The notes: generated by a model not told the origin, from the letters alone. Counted from the first letter of the stretch, positions 9,954 through 32,281 are shown. The stretch: DNA of 64,000 nucleotides from an uncultured Gammaproteobacteria bacterium (GCA_964405655.1 CAYOOO010000005.1:6335-70334); one strand, 5' to 3'. Numbers and translations: made by a program.

Positions 9954-10045
9954 AAGTAGAAAAGAAGTGTCTGGTTAAAATACCAGTCTTAGACTAACTT
10001 TGTCAATTCACAAGATATTGGGGGGTAGACAGACCAGAACTCATG

Positions 10046-10118
10046 TCCAAGGCCCTGGAGTCGAACCAGGCTAAACAGGTTTTACAGACCTGCGCATCAA
10101 CCGCTCTGCCAGCCTTGG
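10046..10118 (-). tRNA. tRNA-Tyr (anticodon GUA). It is type I (short 5-nt variable loop) with a C1:G72 acceptor pair and A73; no encoded CCA.
   Basis: Reverse complement: CCAAGGC-TG-GCAGAGCGGTTGATGC-G-CAGGT-CTGTAAA-ACCTG-TTTAG-CCTGG-TTCGACT-CCAGG-GCCTTGG-A. This folds as a cloverleaf with GTA at positions 34-36. Confidence 0.8.
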
Positions 10119-19268: not shown

Positions 19269-19679
19269 TCATCTTATTCGGTGTCTTCTTTTGACTCGCA
19301 GCCTGGCTAGAGATTTTTCCAAAATAGCCAAAGTTTCAGCATACTCCTCACCTGAAAGTTTTTGTTCTAAAGCTGCCTCAGCCCGTTTTTTGGCTTCCTC
19401 AGCAGCTCTTTCATCTATCTCCTCAGCTTTTTCTGCCAGATCAGCCATCACTGTTAAGATATTATTACTCACTTGCAAAAAGCCTTCACCCACTGCCAAA
19501 ACATCAACTTTTCCCCCCTTTTTAATTCGTAGCTCACCAGGCACTACTTTAGCCAATAAATTAGCGTGATGAGGCAGGATACCAATCTCTCCTTGTTCAG
19601 TTGAGATATTAACTTGATCAACTGTCTCATCAAAAATTTCTTTCTCAGGTGTCACTAACTTCAGATGCAAATCCGCCAT
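19269..19679 (-). CDS. atpC: F1 ATP synthase epsilon subunit, separated from the rest of the atp operon.
   Basis: MADLHLKLVTPEKEIF...GEIGILPHHANLLAKVVPGELRI... plus a C-terminal helical hairpin. The ORF can extend to 19703. Confidence 0.8.
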   Translation of the reverse strand: MADLHLKLVTPEKEIFDETVDQVNISTEQGEIGILPHHANLLAKVVPGELRIKKGGKVDVLAVGEGFLQVSNNILTVMADLAEKAEEIDERAAEEAKKRAEAALEQKLSGEEYAETLAILEKSLARLRVKRRHRIR

Positions 19680-19703
19680 AGCGGTATTATCGCAAATTTG
19701 CAT

Positions 19704-19709
19704 ATAATT
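19704..19709 (+). promoter_or_regulatory. TATAAT -10 box ~19 nt upstream of the 19729 ATG, in the divergent region with atpC.
   Basis: An exact TATAAT is present. Confidence 0.3.
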
Positions 19710-19728: not shown

Positions 19729-21234
19729 ATGAGTGGGGATCGATCGAATGAGTTACCAAGAGTCAGCCGAAGAGAATTGGTAAGTCCAACTAGAAGGACT
19801 AATACTCTAGCAACTCGACCAAATATTCTAACTCCATCTCCAGACAGAGTAAGACAAAGACAGGCAAGAAGAGAAAAGATTAAACAAGAACAAAGACGGG
19901 CTCTGCTGGGAATTGCAGGGGCAGCAACTCTAGCTGCAACATTTGCAGGAGCAAAACCTGCAATGGAGGCAGCCCAAAATATCGGAAGGGCAATAACTGG
20001 GGCAAAACCCATGGATCAGCAACCTGTTCAAGCTATCTTACATCCAGTTGATCCCACTGGTGAAAGGACAGCTCCAGCAACTGGAGTTCAAGCTGCAGAA
20101 AGACCCAGACTGCAATCACTTTTAGACAATATCCTAACTACCCCCTTAAATACCCCCCAAAGATTTGATGCAGAAAAAGCTTATGCAGATTCTGCCCAAA
20201 GCTTAAGTGAGATTAACCAAGGATTATGGACAATAACTGATTGGAACTTAAGAATTGGGCTCTTAGACAAAAGATATGCCTTAAGAGATGAGAATAACCC
20301 AAATCATCAACCTCTAACAAAAGAGCAAGCTGATTGGGCAGATAAAGAGTATATCCATCCTGAAACTTTAGCAATTACTATTCAAGCCAGAGAACTGGCT
20401 CAAAAAATTTTAGCTGAATATATTTCTAAAAGAGTTGGCGGATGGTCCAGTTTTAGGCCAGATTTGGCAGCTAAAGTTAAATCTGGTGAGCTTCCACCAG
20501 ATTTTTTTAATAAACTAAGCCCCGGAGATGTCCTAATTAATCCCGGCGGAATGGCTAGGATGGTGGTTTGGGAAACAGGCCAGGGACTACCTAAAGACAA
20601 ACCTCAGGGGGCAGTCTCCTCAATCTTGAGCAGAATCAAGAATAAAATTTCTCCGGAGAGATTTCTGATGTACGGCTTTGTGAACATTGGTTTTACCCCG
20701 GCAAGGTCTCAAATTGATGCAAATACTTTCCTGACTAAAAGATATGACAACAAGGATGCTCTATCATATTTGGCTGGTGAGCTTTCAAAAGAGACAGGTT
20801 TGAATTTCACAGAAAATAATTTACCAGGTTCCTCAAAGGTAGAAATTAAACCGGGCGATAATGACAATGCAATTGCTGAAAAACAACTTAGAAGTACTGT
20901 CTCAGGGGGAGCAGTTGGGCTACAGATGATGCCTGAGGTTATAGCAAATTATCAGTCTAACCCAATAATCCATGAAGCATTTAAAAGAAACGGCCTAACT
21001 ATTAATCCTTACGACCCAGTCTCAGCTACAACTCTAGGCTATCTATTCTTAGCCCAATCTGTTGCTACATCAGGAGGGAATTTCCAGTATGGCTTCCTAA
21101 ATAATACTCATCCTGATCTGAAAGGAAAAGAGACAATGGTTAAAGCTTTTAAGAAAGACTCACTTTTAACCTGGAATAGATTTGATAATCAAGTCAGAGA
21201 AGTCCTGGATTCAGAAGAAAGTTTTAGAATATGA
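19729..21234 (+). CDS. Membrane-anchored protein with a C-terminal lytic-transglycosylase (SLT)-like motif.
   Basis: TM helix (ALLGIAGAATLAATFAGA); EKQLRSTVSGGAVGLQMMPE resembles the SLT E-S...GA-GLMQ-MP signature. Confidence 0.45.
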   Translation: MSGDRSNELPRVSRRELVSPTRRTNTLATRPNILTPSPDRVRQRQARREKIKQEQRRALLGIAGAATLAATFAGAKPAMEAAQNIGRAITGAKPMDQQPVQAILHPVDPTGERTAPATGVQAAERPRLQSLLDNILTTPLNTPQRFDAEKAYADSAQSLSEINQGLWTITDWNLRIGLLDKRYALRDENNPNHQPLTKEQADWADKEYIHPETLAITIQARELAQKILAEYISKRVGGWSSFRPDLAAKVKSGELPPDFFNKLSPGDVLINPGGMARMVVWETGQGLPKDKPQGAVSSILSRIKNKISPERFLMYGFVNIGFTPARSQIDANTFLTKRYDNKDALSYLAGELSKETGLNFTENNLPGSSKVEIKPGDNDNAIAEKQLRSTVSGGAVGLQMMPEVIANYQSNPIIHEAFKRNGLTINPYDPVSATTLGYLFLAQSVATSGGNFQYGFLNNTHPDLKGKETMVKAFKKDSLLTWNRFDNQVREVLDSEESFRI

Positions 21235-21596
21235 ATACCCATAGTTGTGAAACACTAATTGCAACCTGTATAGACTTCAGGTTTCAGGAATATATTAATG
21301 ATTGGATAAAGGAAAATTTTAGTCCCAAAACTTATGATAGGGTGGCCTTTGCCGGGGGAGTAAAAGAATTTGAAACTATCTTTGGACAAATTGAAACTTC
21401 AAAAAGGCTCCATGATATTAAAAAAGTAGTTTTAATAAATCATGAGGATTGCGGGGCATATGGAGAGTCTGGTACTAAAAAGAAGCATATCCAAGATCTA
21501 AAACAGGCATCTTCCCGAATTAAAAAGCAGTACTCAGATTTAGAAGTAGCAACTTATTATCTTAAACTAAGCGGCACTTTTGAAAAAATTCAATGA
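21231..21596 (+). CDS. Small beta-carbonic-anhydrase-like protein (121 aa) carrying the CxDxR and HxxCG zinc-site motifs.
   Basis: CIDFRF and INHEDCGAYG. It overlaps the upstream gene by 4 nt. Confidence 0.4.
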   Translation: MNTHSCETLIATCIDFRFQEYINDWIKENFSPKTYDRVAFAGGVKEFETIFGQIETSKRLHDIKKVVLINHEDCGAYGESGTKKKHIQDLKQASSRIKKQYSDLEVATYYLKLSGTFEKIQ

Positions 21597-21973
21597 AAAC
21601 TATTAAGCAAAGTTATTTAATAAATGCTCAAGTTAGTAAAGTCTGGCAGGCTTTGGTGAATCCAAAAATTATTGATGAGTGGGGTGGGGGACCGGCAAAA
21701 ATGAGCGAGAGAGAAGGCAGCAGTTTCTCTCTTTGGGGAGGAGATATTCATGGCAGTAATCTTAAAGTGATAAAAAACAAACAACTTGTCCAGGATTGGT
21801 ATTCAGGTGACTGGGAGAATTCTTCCAAAGTTACTTTTACGTTAAAATCAGATGGTCAAAAAACAGAAGTAGATTTACTCCATGAAGAAGTGCCAGATGA
21901 TGAAGCAGATGAAATAGAAGATGGCTGGCAAAGATTTTATTTAGGACCGCTCAAAGATTACTTAGAAAAATAA
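21593..21973 (+). CDS. SRPBCC/AHSA1-like (START-fold) protein.
   Basis: SKVWQALVNPKIIDEW ... acidic C-terminus; 4-nt overlap with the upstream gene. Confidence 0.45.
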   Translation: MKTIKQSYLINAQVSKVWQALVNPKIIDEWGGGPAKMSEREGSSFSLWGGDIHGSNLKVIKNKQLVQDWYSGDWENSSKVTFTLKSDGQKTEVDLLHEEVPDDEADEIEDGWQRFYLGPLKDYLEK

Positions 21974-22162
21974 CTTCTCTCTTCCTTGATTTTTAGAATA
22001 TTTTGACGCACAATGCTAACCATGTCTTTAGTGGATCATCAACAGCAAAGAAGAGTTTGGGAAGAGGTCATATAAGAAGACTAATGATTGTTTGCATCAC
22101 ATAGTAATTTTTCAAAAAAAGTAACTCTTTAGATCCCATAGTTTGATTTTAAATAAGGTTGT

Positions 22163-22172
22163 GACTATAATC
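22163..22172 (+). promoter_or_regulatory. TGACTATAAT extended -10-like promoter upstream of the methyltransferase gene.
   Basis: TG-ac-TATAAT ~15 nt before the ATG at 22186. Confidence 0.3.
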
Positions 22173-22185
22173 TGAAAGATTAATT

Positions 22186-22836
22186 ATGGCTAAAGCTGAA
22201 GATATTGTAGCTCATACTGAAGGGTACTTCTCTCAAATCAGGACGAAGACCAAGCCTCAAACAGTGACAATTGCTGGGGTGGAGATTGTGGTTAACCCAG
22301 GGGTTTTTATGCCTGCAACTGATAGCAGATTGCTGGCAGATAACATTAGAGTAGGATTAGGTACTTCTTTCTTGGACATCTCAACTGGATGTGGTCTGCA
22401 TGCTGTTGTAGCAGGCCTCAGAGGAGGGTTTGGAATAGCTACAGATATTAATCCAGAGGCAGTTAGAAACGCACAAGAGAATTTCTGTAGATATAAGTTA
22501 AGAGTAATGGCCTTAGAGTCAGATATGTTTGACTCTATCCCAGCTTGGAACTTTGAGTTAATCATGGCTAATGGACCATTTCATGAAGGAGAAATAAAAG
22601 ACCGTCTAGATTATGCCCGTTTTGGAGCAGCCAGGTTTCATCAAGGGTTACTTGAAGGCGCCAGAACTCATTTAAGAAGGAATGGTAGGCTACTTATAGC
22701 TTTTGCCCAGTGGGCAGATACAGCTTGTCTTATGCATCAGATAGAAAATAATGGATTCCAAGCCCAAGTTATAGACAGACGCTCATCAGAAGATGGCCAA
22801 AGAACATATGATCTTTATGAGGTAAGATTTGCTTAA
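22186..22836 (+). CDS. SAM-dependent methyltransferase, HemK/PrmC/RsmC-like (NPPF-type motif NGPF).
   Basis: FLDISTGCGLHAVVA (motif I) and IMANGPF (motif IV). Confidence 0.6.
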   Translation: MAKAEDIVAHTEGYFSQIRTKTKPQTVTIAGVEIVVNPGVFMPATDSRLLADNIRVGLGTSFLDISTGCGLHAVVAGLRGGFGIATDINPEAVRNAQENFCRYKLRVMALESDMFDSIPAWNFELIMANGPFHEGEIKDRLDYARFGAARFHQGLLEGARTHLRRNGRLLIAFAQWADTACLMHQIENNGFQAQVIDRRSSEDGQRTYDLYEVRFA

Positions 22837-22841
22837 AATAT

Positions 22842-23324
22842 ATGTCACTAGAATCACAAACAAATAGAAACTATCCTGGATATGTTCAACTAATTCGGGA
22901 TTTGTTTATTACCCGAAAAGGGCTAATCTCAAACTTAACGCCTACTGAGTTGTTAGCTCCTGATAAAAAAGAGGCTTATTTACAACACGTTATAAAAAGT
23001 CCCCAAGAGCTAGGTATGTTGGCAGATGCTTTAGATGAGGCATTTAGAGAATCCAAACAAGCACAGCTCTTGTCTGATCGGGAAGAAGCAGTCCTAAGAA
23101 TGCGCTACAGTCTAGACGATCCTGCCCTAGAAGGCAGAACTTTAAGCGAAGTTGCTGCTCAGACCCCCAGATTAACCACTACCACCAAAAGATCAATAGG
23201 CCAACAAGGTTTATCAGTGGAAAGAACCAGGACTATTATTGAGGAAGCACTGGCTAAAATTAGACATTACAGCAGACAAAAACCAATCTTTGGGTTTACA
23301 GCCAACACTGATTTTTACTTATGA
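22842..23324 (+). CDS. Sigma-70 region-4-like HTH protein (160 aa).
   Basis: LSDREEAVLRMRY...TLSEVAAQ...GLSVERTRTIIEEALAKIR matches the sigma region 4 pattern. Confidence 0.45.
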   Translation: MSLESQTNRNYPGYVQLIRDLFITRKGLISNLTPTELLAPDKKEAYLQHVIKSPQELGMLADALDEAFRESKQAQLLSDREEAVLRMRYSLDDPALEGRTLSEVAAQTPRLTTTTKRSIGQQGLSVERTRTIIEEALAKIRHYSRQKPIFGFTANTDFYL

Positions 23325-24352
23325 GTTTAACCAGAGAAACAGAGGTTTACTTAAACCATACTCAAAGATTCTTATCCGAAAGAAAGGGAATACCCAGAGC
23401 GATAAGAAGATCCAGACAACGACCGGAAGTTTTAAACCAGGCATTGGAGGATTTAGAACTAGCTGTGCTTCACCTCAATGGCTTTATCAACTCATCCGAT
23501 AAACCCTTAGGTCTAAGACAAGCATTGTTACCGTTTTCTACAATAATCAAAACTGAGCTTGAAGAAGGAACAAGCTTCTACTTTCTCAGAGAGGGGAAAA
23601 ACTTACCATCTCCAAAAAATGAAGCCGGCAGAAAAACTCCTCAAGCTATCGAAGAGGCTAGAGCGATTTTCAAGCAAGCGGATAAGTTTATGTATTGGGG
23701 AGATTTAAATGTCAGTGGAGGCTGGAAATTTCACAGACAGCTTAAAGATCTGTCCCAGCTTGTTAATTCTTTTGCTATTGAAATGTATGGACTTTTGGCA
23801 GCATATAGATCTTTGCCTCTTTGGAATAAAAGCAGCACAGTAGTTTTAGCATTAGAGGAGATGCTAGCTGTCCATGGAACCAATACTAAAATGTATCAGG
23901 CAATCAAAGGCTGGTACAGTTTGGATGAAGGTTTTTCACCAATTCTAGTCGGGATGATTGAAGGTAGGGTAGATGTTCCTTTTAGGTTTGGTCAGGCAAT
24001 CAGAGTCACTCCTAGCTTTGTAGTATTTGACGGATATAAACCTGGTCTTGAGGGAAAAGCAGAAGGGCAAAGGTGGTATATCTCTCCAAGAACTGATGCA
24101 GCAGAACAGATGCTAATTGAGGCTGCTAAACTACATAGAATTGGTCAAGGTTTAACTCAACCTCATCAAGTTTTGGCTCCAATCAGTCAAACCAGAACTT
24201 TACTCAGAACAGATAGGACTTCAGATAATTTAAGAGTTTTAATTGGTGGTGCAGTGGATAAACCTAAAGAATGGGAAGATGCTGCTCCAACCCCAGATAG
24301 AATGGAACAGTGCTTAAGCTTACACCCAGATTTCTACAGCTTTTATGATTAA
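23321..24352 (+). CDS. Hypothetical protein (343 aa).
   Basis: ORF with a 4-nt overlap with the upstream gene; no recognisable motifs. Confidence 0.35.
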   Translation: MSLTRETEVYLNHTQRFLSERKGIPRAIRRSRQRPEVLNQALEDLELAVLHLNGFINSSDKPLGLRQALLPFSTIIKTELEEGTSFYFLREGKNLPSPKNEAGRKTPQAIEEARAIFKQADKFMYWGDLNVSGGWKFHRQLKDLSQLVNSFAIEMYGLLAAYRSLPLWNKSSTVVLALEEMLAVHGTNTKMYQAIKGWYSLDEGFSPILVGMIEGRVDVPFRFGQAIRVTPSFVVFDGYKPGLEGKAEGQRWYISPRTDAAEQMLIEAAKLHRIGQGLTQPHQVLAPISQTRTLLRTDRTSDNLRVLIGGAVDKPKEWEDAAPTPDRMEQCLSLHPDFYSFYD

Positions 24353-24509
24353 TATCAAAAATCAGCCAAATTTATTCAAGTTATAGGCAAAAGAGAGACA
24401 TATCACCAAATTGCCTATATTAAAAAACTAAGCTGCTTTTGATTTTTAGTCTTTAGAGTAGCAAACTAGCTTTGGTGTCAACGAATCAGCATTAATTACA
24501 AAATTTATT

Positions 24510-24785
24510 ATGTCCAACGGGAGAGAACCTGTAGAAAAACGTGGAAGTTCAAATCATTACATAGAATTAGCCAGGTTTATGTGGGCACTCTTGGCGGGAA
24601 AAAATGAAGATAAAATGTTAGTCTTGGCAGCTCGAGCATCTGTTGTAGGTGGTGTTTCGACCGGAGCAGCAATAGTAGGATTTGCCACAGGTAGACTTGA
24701 GATTGCTGCTCTGGGCGGAAGTCTGACATATCTCAGCGGTTATATTGGACTCAGGGCTGTAAATGCTTCTAAGAACCAGGGTTAG
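24510..24785 (+). CDS. Small hypothetical membrane protein (91 aa).
   Basis: Gly/Ala-rich hydrophobic stretch. Confidence 0.3.
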   Translation: MSNGREPVEKRGSSNHYIELARFMWALLAGKNEDKMLVLAARASVVGGVSTGAAIVGFATGRLEIAALGGSLTYLSGYIGLRAVNASKNQG

Positions 24786-24787
24786 GT

Positions 24788-27008
<2,221 letters not shown>

Positions 27009-27011
27009 AAT

Positions 27012-28517
27012 TTAATTTTTGCTTGTTTTCTGAAAGACCTTAACAAACTCTTTAGTAACCTTTTCTAATTCTTTGGTTAATTTCTCATCTAACTCTTTCT
27101 TCTCTGCTATCTTAGTCAAAAGCTTTTTAGTTCTTAATCTTAAATATTTGACATATTCTTCTTCTGCCTCTTTGACTTTATCAACTGATATTTCATCAAA
27201 ATGGCCATTAGTTACAGCCCAAAGGGAAGCTACTTGCTCCTCAACTGAAACAGGGGAGAAAGGAGGTTGTTTTAGAACCTCAGTAATTCTTCTGCCTCTT
27301 TCAATTTGCATCTTGGTATTTGGATCTAAATCAGAGGAGAATTGAGCAAACGCAGCCAGTTCTCTAAATTGGGCTAAGTCCAGCTTAAGCCTACCTGCTA
27401 CGCCTTTCATAGCTTTAGTCTGGGCTGCACCACCAACCCTTGAGACTGATAAACCCACATTTAAAGCCGGCCTGATTCCTGCAAAAAATAAGTCTGTCTC
27501 CAAATAAATCTGTCCATCAGTAATAGAGATAACATTTGTTGGAATATAGGCTGAGACATCTCCGGCTTGAGTCTCTATAATAGGTAGGGCTGTTAAAGAA
27601 CCTCCACCAAAATCCTCATTTAACCTAGCTGCCCGCTCTAAAAGCCTGGAGTGAAGATAAAAGACATCGCCTGGATAAGCTTCTCTTCCAGAAGGCCTTC
27701 TTAAAAGCAGGGACATCTGTCTGTAAGAGTTAGCATGTTTTGACAGATCATCATAAACGACCAAGGCATCCCTGCCTTGATCCATGAAATATTCTCCAAT
27801 TGCACAACCAGAGTAGGGAGCCAGGTATTGCATAGGAGCGGGATCAGAAGCTGTTGCTGATAGCACAATGGTGTGATCCATGGCACCAAACTCCTCTAGT
27901 CTAGCTACAATTTGAGCAACTTTAGAGGTCTTTTGACCAATTGCCACATAAATACAAATAACGTCTTTCTGATTAATGATTGTATCTACGGCAATGGTGG
28001 TCTTGCCTGTATTTCGATCGCCAATAATTAGCTCCCTTTGACCCCGACCAATCGGGATCAGGGCATCAATTGCCTTAATACCTGTTTGCAAAGGAGTGTT
28101 AACTGACTGTCTGGTAATAACTCCTGGAGCAATCTTTTCAACTGGGTAGGCCTTATCTGTTTTAATTGGACCCTTACCATCAATCGGTTGACCTAAGGCA
28201 TTAACAACCCGACCAATCATTGAGTCGCCAACTGGTACTTCCAAAACCTTACCAGTTGTTTTAACAGTATCACCTTCCTTAACCTTGGTAAAATCTCCCA
28301 AGATAACGCTCCCAACATTGTATTGCTCTAAATTCAAAGCTAAACCAAAAATCTCTTTACCAAAGTCCAAAAGCTCAGAAGATTGAACATCTGATAAACC
28401 ATCTATCCTGGCTATTCCATCTCCAGCCTCAGTTACAGTGCCGATATTTTCTTTGGTCGCCTTAAGCTTAAAACCCTTTATCTGTCTTTCAATCTGCGAA
28501 ACTAAATCACTAACCAT
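27012..28517 (-). CDS. atpA: F1 ATP synthase alpha subunit.
   Basis: GDRNTGKT P-loop; alpha-specific regions. Confidence 0.95.
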
Positions 28518-28905
28518 GAATTATTCCTCCAATTTGTAAAATTTTGTCTTGTAAGGAGTTATCAATCAATAAATCACCAACTCTTATTCTCAAACCAGCA
28601 ATAAGATTAGGATTTACTACCACTTTAGTTTGATTAACAGGAAAATCTTTTTTAACCTGCCTTTCAATCTTTGCTAGCTCGCTTTTTGATAAATCAACTG
28701 CTGCCTCTATCACCAAAGTAGTTTTATCAAGCTCTCTTTTTATTCCTTTACTGTACTCAGTTAAGGCAAAAATAGCCTCAGAAGTGGGAAGTTTTTCTAG
28801 ATCTTTGATAATTTTTTGGGCTTTATTCTCAGACAGTTTGCCCGCACTAAAACTTGCCTGGACCAACTTTTCAACTAACTTTTTTAACAGCTTATTTTTT
28901 TTCAT
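28510..28905 (-). CDS. atpH: ATP synthase delta (OSCP) subunit, short form (C-terminal domain only).
   Basis: Position between atpF and atpA; C-terminal delta-like ...[22 protein letters not shown]. Confidence 0.6.
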
Positions 28906-28907
28906 TT

Positions 28908-29402
28908 TTAAAGTCTTTTGACACTATCCTCAACCATCTTCTTTTGCTCAGGTCTTGTTAAGATCTTGCCAGTAACTTTCTCTAAAGCACTGACCACAAT
29001 TTCTGCCAGTTCTTCTCTTAACTCCTGATGCATTTTTTCCCGCTCAAGTTTAATAGAGTCTTGACCTTTTTTAAGCATCTCGTCAATATCTTTCTGAGTT
29101 TTAGTATGGGCCTGCTGAATAATTAGATCAGCAGATTTTGTTGCCTCTGCGACAATTTTTCTTGCCTCTAACGAAACTTTTTCTAAAGCTTTATCCCGAT
29201 CTTCCCCGGTTTGTTTAAGCTGCCTTTCTATTTCCTCAGCATCTTTAAGACTTTGGGCAATCCGTTCTTTCCTCTCCTCCAAAACTTTAAGCAGAGGTTT
29301 ATATAGCAGTCTTTTTAATATCCAAAGCAACACTAAAAAATTAACTACTTGCGCAGCCAAAAGCAACGGTTTAATTCCAAAATCTTTAAGTATTTGTTCC
29401 AT
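28908..29402 (-). CDS. atpF: Fo ATP synthase b subunit.
   Basis: Single N-terminal TM followed by a long charged coiled coil. Confidence 0.75.
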   Translation of the reverse strand: MEQILKDFGIKPLLLAAQVVNFLVLLWILKRLLYKPLLKVLEERKERIAQSLKDAEEIERQLKQTGEDRDKALEKVSLEARKIVAEATKSADLIIQQAHTKTQKDIDEMLKKGQDSIKLEREKMHQELREELAEIVVSALEKVTGKILTRPEQKKMVEDSVKRL

Positions 29403-29522: not shown

Positions 29523-29753
<231 letters not shown>

Positions 29754-30506
29754 TCAATGAGAGGTTTCATGTTTCTCAGTAAGTAGCACCATAAAAACAA
29801 GCGTCAGCATCATAAATACTGCCGCTTGGACAAACCCGACTATAATCTCCAGAAAATAAAATGGCAAAGGTACTAAAAAGGCAGTCCACTTTGCTAAAGA
29901 TGCGACAGTGGATAAAACCACTTCGCCCGCAAATATATTACCAAAAAGTCGGAAAGAAAGCGATACTACTTTTGTTGCCTCACCAACAAGCTCTAAAAGA
30001 CCAACAAATAAAAAAATTGGGCTTAGAGAAACCCACCTCTTTAGATAATCTTTCAATCCTAAATACTTAACAGCAAAAAAATGAGTAACAACTGCTGAAA
30101 CCAAAGCGAGGGATAAGGTCATGTTTAAATCAGAGTTGATTGAACGAAGTAAGGGAACAAAAATCTCTTTACCATCATGGCGCTCAAAAAAACCAATTGT
30201 GGCAAACCCCGGTAGTAAACCCAACCAATTAGCAGTAATGATAAAAAGAAAGAAGGTCATCACAAAGGGGAAGAAAACTTTGGCTTTTGAATGAGATAGA
30301 TCTTCTACCATGCTGTAGCCGCCTTCAACGATCATTTCAAAAAAATTTTGTAAGCCTCCTGGTACCAGCTGAACTTTGCGGGTAGCTAAATAACTAACAA
30401 CAATCAAAACAACCATCACCAGCCAGCTAACAAGCAAAGTATTAGTAATAGGAAAGTTATTAATAAACCCGATTACCTCGGGTGCCAAGACTATCTCATG
30501 TTCCAT
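29754..30506 (-). CDS. atpB: Fo ATP synthase a subunit.
   Basis: Polytopic; conserved Arg region (LSFRLFGNIFAGE). Confidence 0.85.
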   Translation of the reverse strand: MEHEIVLAPEVIGFINNFPITNTLLVSWLVMVVLIVVSYLATRKVQLVPGGLQNFFEMIVEGGYSMVEDLSHSKAKVFFPFVMTFFLFIITANWLGLLPGFATIGFFERHDGKEIFVPLLRSINSDLNMTLSLALVSAVVTHFFAVKYLGLKDYLKRWVSLSPIFLFVGLLELVGEATKVVSLSFRLFGNIFAGEVVLSTVASLAKWTAFLVPLPFYFLEIIVGFVQAAVFMMLTLVFMVLLTEKHETSH

Positions 30507-30569: not shown

Positions 30570-30917
30570 TTAGACAGTTTTTTTGCGGCGGGGATAATTC
30601 TTAAAAAAAATCTTTCCTGCATCAGGATACATAAGTCCTTGAAAGATTCCCCCAACTAAAAATCCCTTGGTAAAAGTATAATCCAAAAAACCAACTGTTA
30701 GAGGAATTGAAACCACCAGCAGGATTAGAAGATTTAACCAGTGGTGCAACCAGATGGTTCTACCAAAAAGACTGAATCTAATGCTCGGGCTAATCTCTAT
30801 CGGCCCCTTTTTTAAAGATGGGAGTTTTCTCCTGACAGAAGACTTGGGATGGGTCAGGTAATGAAAAAGCACTATACTCAAAAAAAGTCCCGGTAGGAAC
30901 TTTATCACTTCATCCAT
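30570..30917 (-). CDS. Small membrane protein upstream of atpB, possibly AtpI/AtpZ-like.
   Basis: Position and two or three TM helices only. Confidence 0.3.
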   Translation of the reverse strand: MDEVIKFLPGLFLSIVLFHYLTHPKSSVRRKLPSLKKGPIEISPSIRFSLFGRTIWLHHWLNLLILLVVSIPLTVGFLDYTFTKGFLVGGIFQGLMYPDAGKIFFKNYPRRKKTV

Positions 30918-31174: not shown

Positions 31175-32281
31175 ATGACAACTGAAGAAAAAATTAAATT
31201 AATTACCAGAAATTTAGAAGAGACTTTAACTGAGGAGGAGCTTAAGACTCTAATAGAGTCTGGTAAACCACTTATCCACTATATTGGTTATGAAGTTTCA
31301 GGAAAACTCCATATTGGCCAAGGTTTATATATCATGCTTAAGATTAAAGACCTCCAAGAAGCTGGAGTGAAAACCAAAATTTTAATTGCTGACTGGCATA
31401 CATGGCTTAATAAAAAGCTTGATGGAAAATTAGAAACTGCTAAAAAACTTGGCAAAGACTACCTAGAAGAAGTTTTAAGAGCGAGCGCAGTTTGTGTGGG
31501 AGCAGATCCAGACAAGATCGAATTTGTCTTGGGAAGTGAGCATTATCAGAAATTAGGCCTAGATTATTGGGCAACAGTCATAAGAGTAGCCAAGGCCACA
31601 ACTTTATCCCGAATGATCCGTTCTACTACTATTATGGGGCGTAAGGAATCTGAAGTGACTGATTCTGCTATGCTGATTTACCCTGCTATGCAATCAGCAG
31701 ATATCTTTATGCTAGGTGTTAATATCGCTCAAGCTGGCACAGATCAAAGAAATGTCCACATTGTAGCAAGAGACGCTGCAGAGGAACTTGGTTTTGAAAA
31801 ACCAATAACCATTCATGGTCACCTTTTACAAGGACTACTTCCTCCAATTTTGGTTGAAAATCCCAAGAGTGGCAAAAAAGAGATGGATATGGAGGCAGCT
31901 AAGATGAGTAAATCAAAACCTGATAGTGGGGTTTATATGACTGATACTCCTGAGGAGATTAAAAGAAAGATTATGGGAGCCTATGCACCAGAAGGGGTGG
32001 TAGAGTATAACCCTGTTTTAGACTGGACAAAGCATCTGATCTTTTACGAGGAAGGTTCAACTTTAACTATTAAAAGAGACCCAAGATGGGGAGGGGATCT
32101 AAGTTACAACTCTTATCAAGATTTAGAAAAAGACTATGAGCAAAAAAAACTTCACCCTCAGGACTTAAAGGTAGCTGTAGTAGAGTGGTTGATTCAAAAA
32201 CTCGAGCCTGCCAGAAAGCACTTTGAAGAGCCCAAAAGAAAAGCTGCGCTAGAAGAGATTGAGAAATTAACCCAGCGATAA
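31175..32281 (+). CDS. tyrS: Archaeal/eukaryal-type tyrosyl-tRNA synthetase.
   Basis: HIGQ and KMSKS motifs. It aligns along its length with archaeal TyrRS (YIGYEVSGKLHIGQ; YPAMQSADI; LTIKRDPRWGGDLSYNSYQDLEKDYEQKKLHPQDLK). Confidence 0.85.
   Translation: MTTEEKIKLITRNLEETLTEEELKTLIESGKPLIHYIGYEVSGKLHIGQGLYIMLKIKDLQEAGVKTKILIADWHTWLNKKLDGKLETAKKLGKDYLEEVLRASAVCVGADPDKIEFVLGSEHYQKLGLDYWATVIRVAKATTLSRMIRSTTIMGRKESEVTDSAMLIYPAMQSADIFMLGVNIAQAGTDQRNVHIVARDAAEELGFEKPITIHGHLLQGLLPPILVENPKSGKKEMDMEAAKMSKSKPDSGVYMTDTPEEIKRKIMGAYAPEGVVEYNPVLDWTKHLIFYEEGSTLTIKRDPRWGGDLSYNSYQDLEKDYEQKKLHPQDLKVAVVEWLIQKLEPARKHFEEPKRKAALEEIEKLTQR

Follow-up and report, generated by a model that had tools for sequence, protein, structure and literature searches.

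The window analysed here is a 64,000-nt stretch of DNA (GCA_964405655.1, CAYOOO010000005.1:6335-70334) that carries the genes of an F1Fo ATP synthase on its minus strand. According to the open reading frame (ORF) map, Pfam and NCBIfam, all eight subunit genes are intact, and the order atpBEFHAGD is kept between 30506 and 24788. The gene of the epsilon subunit, atpC, is not contiguous with atpD, the gap between the two being 5108 bp, and positions 19729-24785 are filled by seven ORFs on the plus strand, here called I1 to I7. Three pairs of these ORFs overlap by 4 nt (I1/I2 at 21231-21234, I2/I3 at 21593-21596 and I5/I6 at 23321-23324), and the ORF map together with a promoter scan places at least three transcription units in the block. 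The atpC gene itself is intact and encodes the beta-sandwich as well as the C-terminal helical domain; it is 68-74% identical to its clade homologues in an alignment with a mean column identity of 83%. An alternative start at an upstream ATG, which would place the start of the gene at 19703, was not backed by this alignment, which favours the ATG at 19679.

The first-pass annotation of this DNA had described the separation of atpC from atpBEFHAGD by a plus-strand block of about 5 kb, and the ORF map, Pfam and NCBIfam bear this out. Its domain calls (carbonic anhydrase (CA)-like, SRPBCC, HemK/RsmC-like methyltransferase and sigma region-4-only) are likewise upheld by Pfam/NCBIfam, and the 4-nt overlaps and the block's own TATAAT boxes are present, the first box lying at 19703-19708 where it had been put at 19704. 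The interpretation given there, in which the block was inserted between atpD and atpC and could be a mobile element in decay or what is left of a prophage, did not hold up, as the split occurs in 19 of 19 relatives and the marks of such an element are absent. We consider it likely that atpC was detached long ago throughout the lineage, that its partner is a CA-like gene, and that a permissive slot beside this pair holds species-specific genes.

The block corresponds to HYS93_02400 to HYS93_02430 in the NCBI record GCA_016176395.1 (contig JACOXF010000009.1). At least four sequencing runs gave independent per-run assemblies in which both of its borders are found again, and the arrangement is therefore not an assembly artefact.

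How widespread is the split? Species-representative genomes were scanned for atpD and metagenome contigs were scanned with the atpC alignment, followed by tblastn with the window proteins. Contigs with both genes present and an atpC at least 57% identical to that of the window were taken as the clade set (n = 19). The distance between atpD and atpC ranges from 391 to 9455 bp in all 19 of these loci, whose atpD genes are 77-88% identical and whose organism name, where given, is Daviesbacteria. On the other hand, the distance is only -19 to +149 bp in all 114 outgroup loci, none of which is split; these include Woykebacteria (L008, the next-nearest), Falkowbacteria, Saccharibacteria and many phyla outside the candidate phyla radiation (CPR). 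These results indicate that the split predates the sampled members of the clade. An empty site, that is, a contiguous atpDC, was not found among the 19 related loci, and even the smallest gap contains a CA gene. The order atpBEFHAGD is the same in all relatives.

The shortest forms show what the arrangement consists of at its simplest. In locus L101, with the 391-bp gap, atpD is followed by 27 nt, a single antisense CA gene, 30 nt and then atpC; a second minimal form, L104, has a gap of 641 bp. Only one protein of the block, I2, has homologues in the gaps of relatives. In about 18 distinct loci, the gene immediately upstream of atpC is a member of its family, Pro_CA_2, on the opposite strand and with 50-72% identity. 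A profile search of this family returned 2350 homologues, of which the best 120 are 58-72% identical; among these 120, all that carry an organism name are from Daviesbacteria. Between the 3' end of atpD and that of the CA gene lies a slot of 0 to about 6 kb, the genes of which are unrelated from genome to genome, among them a ParE toxin-antitoxin pair, a glyoxalase, retropepsin-like proteases, an EamA transporter, a coiled-coil protein, an aminotransferase and NuoL-type membrane subunits. No counterparts of I3-I7 were found in this cargo, and we count these five genes as cargo themselves. The common backbone reads recG-tyrS-[0.7-3.7 kb]-atpB...atpD-[variable]-CA><atpC-[0.5-10 kb]-PBP1A, and its other junctions vary too; the region behaves as a series of conserved anchors with permissive slots between them. 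In the atpD-CA gap of one relative (L090:5154-5234), we also observed a piece of 27 aa with 70% identity to atpD, left behind by a local duplication or rearrangement.

How is the detached atpC expressed? An alignment of the 70 nt that precede atpC in 31 clade loci shows a TATAAT, TACAAT or TAGAAT box, often with TGn before it, that ends 6-10 nt before the atpC ATG in 26 of the 31. The box is kept whatever gene lies upstream, whereas such a box precedes only 8 of the 65 window genes (Fisher p = 8e-12). No Shine-Dalgarno sequence was seen upstream of atpC in the window or the clade loci. The conserved box points to an autonomous promoter of atpC, and because it lies 6-10 nt before the ATG without a Shine-Dalgarno sequence, the atpC transcript is probably leaderless or nearly so. 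The statement of the first-pass annotation that atpC must be transcribed separately is thus backed by a conserved -10 box directly before the start codon, and read-through from atpD across the 5-kb antisense stretch is unlikely to be the main route to atpC. In compact relatives, only 16-39 nt separate the start codon of the CA gene from that of atpC, and the sequence there has a near-palindromic core, such as TGTATAATA or TATTATACAATA, which reads as a -10 hexamer on both strands; such a core fits a symmetric bidirectional promoter for both genes. As a separate observation, most window genes have no recognisable Shine-Dalgarno sequence, and in about 12% of the window genes (e.g., tyrS at 31175) a TATAAT-like box stands 6-11 nt before the start codon, which suggests that leaderless transcripts are regular in this organism.

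In the scenario that we favour, the window comes from a Candidatus Daviesbacteria genome (Patescibacteria/CPR), in whose lineage atpC would have left the atp operon long ago. The conserved state is atpBEFHAGD, a tail-to-tail junction, and a Pro_CA_2 gene on the opposite strand, head-to-head with atpC. The latter would be driven by its own promoter and its mRNA would be leaderless, and in compact relatives one symmetric bidirectional promoter would serve both CA and atpC. The 3'-3' junction between atpD and CA has gathered different genes in each species, and we infer that it is permissive because no promoter lies there for an insertion to disrupt. I2 would be the ancestral CA partner. I1 would be a recurrent gene of the neighbourhood that now lies between CA and atpC and has taken the head-to-head position, and I3-I7 would be species-specific cargo of the permissive slot, with the codon usage of I1-I6 being native. 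Of all this, the order of the genes and how it is spread over the loci, the conserved -10 box and the lack of mobile-element marks are observed.

Several points weigh against this scenario. Five of the 31 loci lack a box 4-11 nt from the atpC ATG, three of these having one 12-23 nt upstream, and the promoter, the leaderless start and the bidirectionality of atpC/CA are all deduced from sequence. The two -10 boxes of the window (19686-19691 on the minus strand and 19703-19708 on the plus strand) are 11 nt apart; because they do not overlap, the symmetric-promoter model applies to the relatives and not to the window. No terminator on the atp strand was found after atpD in the window or in L101. 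Membership of the clade was set by sequence similarity rather than by a resolved phylogeny. Finally, the occurrence of only one I6 homologue worldwide is compatible with horizontal acquisition.

Table 1. Features of the atp region and genes next to atpC in other loci. Coordinates are those of the window unless a locus is named.
Feature	Coordinates	Strand	Assignment or remark
atpB	29754-30506	-	Pfam/NCBIfam
atpE	29523-29726	-	Pfam/NCBIfam
atpF	28908-29402	-	Pfam/NCBIfam
atpH	28510-28905	-	Pfam/NCBIfam
atpA	27012-28517	-	Pfam/NCBIfam
atpG	26160-27008	-	Pfam/NCBIfam
atpD	24788-26155	-	last gene of operon body; TIGR01039, 811 bits
I7, 91 aa	24510-24785	+	glycine-rich putative membrane peptide; no match; HYS93_02400
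I6, 343 aa	23321-24352	+	near-orphan; no match
I5, 160 aa	22842-23324	+	sigma-70 region-4-type helix-turn-helix only; Sigma70_r4 PF04545, 2e-8
I4, 216 aa	22186-22836	+	small class-I methyltransferase; MTS PF05175, 1e-12; HemK2/MTQ2- or RsmC-like, NGPFH in place of NPPY/NPPFH
Promoter-like TTGATT-17-TATAAT upstream of I4	22143-22171 (TATAAT 22166-22171)	+	10/12 positions match
I3, 126 aa	21593-21973	+	SRPBCC/AHSA1, last gene of the I1-I2-I3 unit; PF08327, 8e-21
I2, 121 aa	21231-21596	+	minimal beta-carbonic-anhydrase-like; Pro_CA_2 PF20393, 1.5e-18
I1, 501 aa	19729-21234	+	no Pfam match
TATAAT -10 box of the I1-I2-I3 unit	19703-19708	+	11 nt from the atpC box, back-to-back with it
Putative atpC promoter, extended -10 TGCGATAAT	19694-19686 (hexamer GATAAT 19691-19686)	-	ends 6 nt before ATG
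atpC, epsilon, 136 aa from conserved ATG	19269-19679	-	TIGR01216, 114 bits
Conserved hypothetical, 394 aa	18070-19254	-	starts 14 nt after atpC; ORF map
~500-aa family, L106	8373-9965		directly upstream of atpC
~500-aa family, L007	14971-16491, 16562-18193		directly upstream of atpC
~500-aa family, L171	4119-5633		directly upstream of atpC
~500-aa family, L172	2691-4148		directly upstream of atpC
~500-aa family, L173	1361-3088		directly upstream of atpC
~220-aa family, L108	9328-9963		directly upstream of atpC
~220-aa family, L112	9272-9955		directly upstream of atpC
~220-aa family, L111	2-490		weak relative
~220-aa family, L094	3-236		weak relative
~390-aa family, L102	8373-9515		adjoins atpC
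~390-aa family, L171	5688-6881		adjoins atpC
~390-aa family, L172	4250-5416		adjoins atpC
~390-aa family, L091	1-558		adjoins atpC
Pro_CA_2 homologue, L014	12009-12434		directly after atpC, same strand

The product of I1 contains a Tat-like signal or anchor, RRALLGIAGAATLAATFAGA, at residues 56-75 and no cysteines, and it is modelled with confidence (pLDDT 82) as an all-alpha globular domain. An exhaustive HMMER search collected 105 cluster representatives of its family, which is a small one and shows the pattern E-T-G ... SGGAIGxQFMP ... KWN with an invariant E282. The invariant Glu and the SGGAIGxQFMP motif recall SLT_2 lytic transglycosylases, and I1 is possibly an SLT_2/lysozyme-like cell-wall enzyme. 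The earlier description of I1 as SLT-like is a lead and not a finding: in its favour are this motif and an SLT_2 match in one of 58 family members (2e-5), but I1 has no Pfam match and no significant match in fold. Foldseek comparison with the PDB and BFVD gave nothing significant (Slt70 only at an E of about 3), nor did an HMM search of PDB sequences return anything. TAT signals were seen in 6 of the 58 members. A miscalled start, given the long N-terminal extension, was considered and the annotated ATG was kept, as an I1-like gene in L167 stands head-to-head with atpC as in the window and at the same spacing of 51 nt. In L166, an I1-like gene is followed by atpC on the opposite strand and then by Pro_CA_2. 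I1 is thus not simple cargo, as its family recurs in the atpC neighbourhood. An I1-like gene also lies between PBP1A and tyrS-recG in L168 (GCA_023485375.1, JAMCZV010000030.1, 3295-14620), a related genome without an atp operon at that site; there, the operon is elsewhere in the genome or lost.

I2 scores 67.6 bits against PF20393 (cut-off 30) and stays below the threshold of the classical Pro_CA family PF00484 (17.3 vs. 25.7). Its motifs CxDxR (C13, D15 and R17) and HxxC (H71 and C74) are invariant in 15 sequences. By profile and by these zinc-ligand and dyad motifs, I2 is a member of the beta-carbonic anhydrase superfamily, with CO2 hydration as its predicted activity. At the other end of the block, the stop codon of I7 lies 2 nt from that of atpD. 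Its codon usage is an outlier (z = -3.0), which raises doubt about the ORF itself rather than pointing to foreign origin, and I7 may not be a real gene. A 19-nt inverted repeat (24655-24720; 84% complementary, 28-nt loop) lies inside I7; on the atp strand, it follows the atpD stop at a distance of 68 nt, and as it lacks a T-run, it is not a canonical terminator.

Downstream of atpC, the 394-aa gene has homologues 0.1-6.6 kb from atpC in relatives and is probably co-transcribed with it. This gene, an 81-aa gene and one for a 773-aa protein form one of two paralogous cassettes between 10197 and 19254 on the minus strand, presumably the 'cassette copy 2' with which the first-pass annotation had thought atpC might be transcribed. 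The other cassette comprises 511-aa (with a cupredoxin-like domain) and 357-aa paralogues and a 753-aa protein. The large cassette proteins abound in 'YYTPP' repeats of Pro, Thr and Tyr and raise the local GC to 0.45-0.47. Just upstream of atpB, HYS93_02360 (30570-30917, minus strand, 115 aa) has no family match and a codon z of -2.6; the ORF may be spurious, or it could encode an AtpI/AtpZ-like peptide.

Could I4, I5 and I6 be a small horizontally acquired module, e.g., of a defence- or restriction-modification-like kind, that settled in the permissive slot? The three genes are tightly packed (a 5-nt gap and a 4-nt overlap) behind a promoter of their own, the methyltransferase domain of I4, and only this domain, matches the PADLOC model mad2 at 1e-15, and only one homologue of I6 (37% identity) turned up among 5.8 billion proteins, as is often the case for fast-evolving effectors. 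However, I4 has only 216 aa, and its best matches are protein and rRNA methyltransferases of the HemK2/MTQ2 and RsmC types; I5 and I6 match no defence model, the codon usage is native, and the lone I6 homologue, in an unrelated context, adjoins neither a methyltransferase nor a helix-turn-helix gene. Viral relatives of I5 and phage relatives of I6 were not found. We regard such a module as improbable and have set aside a restriction-modification or defence function as unsupported.

Slightly less probable still is a noncontiguous operon, in which atpC would be co-transcribed with atpBEFHAGD by read-through and the antisense overlap would regulate CA and atpC reciprocally. This architecture is known from Staphylococcus aureus (PMC11034616), and L101, with only about 390 bp and one antisense gene between atpD and atpC, would suit it well; the sole terminator-like hairpin of that locus acts on the CA strand and not on the atp strand, and the lack of a terminator after atpD in the window would likewise permit read-through. 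On the other hand, the conserved consensus -10 box before atpC makes read-through unnecessary, and in the window the antisense transcript would have to run for 5.1 kb against three plus-strand units, with gaps in relatives reaching as much as 9.5 kb.

A recent insertion of a single 5-kb mobile element or prophage remnant between atpD and atpC, followed by decay, is very unlikely. It would account for the absence of I3-I7 from all relatives and for the near-orphan status of I6, and mobile-type cargo does land in this slot elsewhere, as the ParE toxin-antitoxin pair and the retropepsin-like genes show. However, the same split is found in 19 of 19 relatives with gaps down to 391 bp, I2 is ancestral at the site, I1 recurs beside atpC elsewhere, and the block holds at least three transcription units. 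Neither an integrase, a transposase nor any other recombinase was detected among the seven block proteins and the flanking genes with Pfam, NCBIfam, PHROGs and PADLOC; the sole PHROG match was a generic sigma factor and the sole PADLOC match a generic methyltransferase domain. No att-like repeats bracket 19.7-24.8 kb beyond short chance matches, no tRNA or tmRNA target lies near the block (the sole tRNA is at 10045-10118), and an Rfam scan gave no match near it. Searches of phage genomes, plasmids and viral contigs returned no relatives of the block at the DNA or protein level. Its GC content of 0.36-0.41 equals that of the flanks, where the genes are of housekeeping or cell-envelope type, and the synonymous-codon z of I1-I6 is -0.3 to +1.6 relative to the 63 genes of the window, with only I7 deviating. 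The checks that had been proposed with the insertion idea, on codon usage and GC and on integrase genes and att sites, thus gave no sign of a foreign block. The comparison of gene order with related genomes went largely the same way: the split is found everywhere, I2 is conserved and I1 is recurrent, and it is only I3-I7 that are not conserved. The description as locally acquired cargo holds for I3-I7 only.

A chimera of metagenome assembly that joined atpD to unrelated DNA is hardly credible: per-run contigs do break inside atpD and the CA gene, a sign of assembly-graph ambiguity there, but at least four per-run assemblies and the NCBI genome run across the junctions I6-I7-atpD and CA-I1-atpC-394 aa in identical form, and the same split topology is present in 19 other contigs from different studies. 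Among the per-run contigs of the window organism (L001-L004 and L175-L178), the short ones all stop at one of two places, within atpD about 183 nt from its 3' end or midway through the CA gene, which suggests that co-occurring strains share the anchor genes and differ in the genes between them.

We now return to the reading of an old detachment with a CA-like partner. In the sampled Daviesbacteria genomes, atpC nearly always has a gene of the beta/zeta-CA superfamily, or one resembling it, as a neighbour. What lies beside atpC in clade loci without an adjacent Pro_CA_2 gene? We observed that the gene directly upstream on the same strand comes from other families that carry Cys-x-Asp-x-Arg and a downstream His...Cys. 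The first of these, a Daviesbacteria family of about 500 aa in 12 clusters, always adjoins atpC (L007, L106 and L171-L173), and in L171-L173 the box upstream of atpC is the same as that described above. CIDGR, H170 and C180 are invariant in this family. Its AlphaFold model (pLDDT 78.5, pTM 0.82) matches the carboxysomal carbonic anhydrase CsoSCA over the full length (2fgy, E = 5e-11, probability 1.0, TM 0.51/0.56; also 8thm and 9g4t), and the family is thus predicted to be CsoSCA-like, a point settled only by structure prediction. No carboxysome genes were present among the genes called around the CA-like genes. A second family, of about 220 aa and CDCA-like (zeta-type, cadmium), lies directly upstream of atpC in two loci, and its member in L108 passes the Pfam threshold for the CDCA repeat PF18484 (4.7e-8); two weak relatives were also found. 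The third, of about 390 aa, always adjoins atpC as well and carries the motifs WxC(G/A)DAR and NHFxG...GCGG, and at the level of these motifs it may be related to carbonic anhydrases.

A profile comparison of the ~390-aa family with the CsoSCA-like family put the motifs in register and was not significant, and hhalign of Pro_CA_2 against the ~500-aa and CDCA-like families was not significant either, though the motifs aligned. Neither the ~500-aa nor the ~390-aa family has a Pfam match at E up to 10, and a search of PDB sequences with the atpC-neighbour families was empty. A truncated CIDGR protein is head-to-head with atpC in L085; no CA-like neighbour of atpC was detected in L130, L098 and L110, and in the window and L167 it is I1 that adjoins atpC, the CA gene being the next gene in the window. 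Outside Daviesbacteria, the only adjacency of this kind seen among the outgroups is an independent one in Falkowbacteria, where a contiguous atpDC is directly followed by a Pro_CA_2 homologue (L014).

The recurring replacement at the same position suggests that epsilon may be functionally linked to CA and to CO2/bicarbonate chemistry. It is possible, though we hold it only tentatively, that atpC of Daviesbacteria was recoupled to CA and that the replacement reflects selection for co-expressing a CO2/bicarbonate enzyme with the inhibitory subunit of the ATPase. A literature search found no publication that describes an association of atpC with carbonic anhydrase or the split of the Daviesbacteria ATP synthase.

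How does this locus compare with known systems? It shares with the canonical F1Fo operon atp(I)BEFHAGDC the eight subunit genes and the order atpBEFHAGD but differs in that the Daviesbacteria atpC lies 0.4-9.5 kb off, behind opposite genes and with its own promoter. No other atp genes are normally linked as tightly as those of beta and epsilon, and to our knowledge, the known split atp operons (cyanobacterial/chloroplast atp1/atp2 and alphaproteobacterial F0/F1) keep these two together. Like a genomic island or prophage remnant, an opposite-strand block with content that varies between related genomes interrupts a conserved operon; unlike such an element, there is no recombinase, att repeats, tRNA target, compositional deviation or phage/plasmid homologues, and the interruption is fixed in the clade, with I2 and probably I1 being vertically conserved. 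The noncontiguous operon of the S. aureus menE-menC...ytkD type (PMC11034616) also has related same-strand genes parted by an opposite gene, a likeness clearest in the minimal atpD/CA(antisense)/atpC relatives; the difference is that atpC has a conserved promoter of its own, and co-transcription is implausible for the 5-kb form of the window.

Promoters that are bidirectional by -10 symmetry are an established class, with divergent starts 7-25 bp apart and most often 18 bp, according to PMC10268837, which summarises Warman et al. 2021. Compared with that summary, the relatives are similar in their CA/atpC starts 16-39 nt apart and their near-palindromic TATAAT/ATTATA core, and if both transcripts are leaderless, the 16-17-nt cases would give starts about 17-18 bp apart, the optimum reported there. 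The window differs from the promoters so summarised in that its partner is I1 and its boxes are separate, and the starts in the relatives are predicted ones. With the beta-carbonic anhydrases, including CsoSCA, the shared features are the zinc-site motifs CxDxR and HxxC of I2 and the CIDGR...H...C of the ~500-aa family; I2 differs in its length of about 120 aa, about half that of a normal beta-CA, and the consistent neighbour of these CA-like genes is atpC. The Daviesbacteria locus is thus a combination of known kinds, namely, a split operon, a divergent promoter pair and a variable slot.

For annotation, these results mean that operon-based inference would wrongly call the Daviesbacteria atpC missing or the block foreign. 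The split is a signature of the lineage and usable as a synteny marker. For the evolution of operons, the locus is a clean case of a former operon in which gained genes collect at a tail-to-tail junction while the head-to-head promoter pair stays locked. The independent expression of epsilon beside CA-type genes of three or four families suggests that the ATPase inhibitor is controlled in its stoichiometry or according to conditions, possibly in connection with CO2, bicarbonate or pH. If the tentative recoupling of atpC to CA is true, a fermentative organism with its F-ATPase running in reverse could, e.g., adjust ATP hydrolysis to bicarbonate or pH. The two genes would then be coupled by the leaderless bidirectional promoter that they share, and CsoSCA-type enzymes would be placed outside carboxysomes. 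A CsoSCA-like family outside a carboxysome context would be of interest for the evolution of carbonic anhydrases, and this family and the association of atpC with carbonic anhydrase are the parts of the locus most worth attention.

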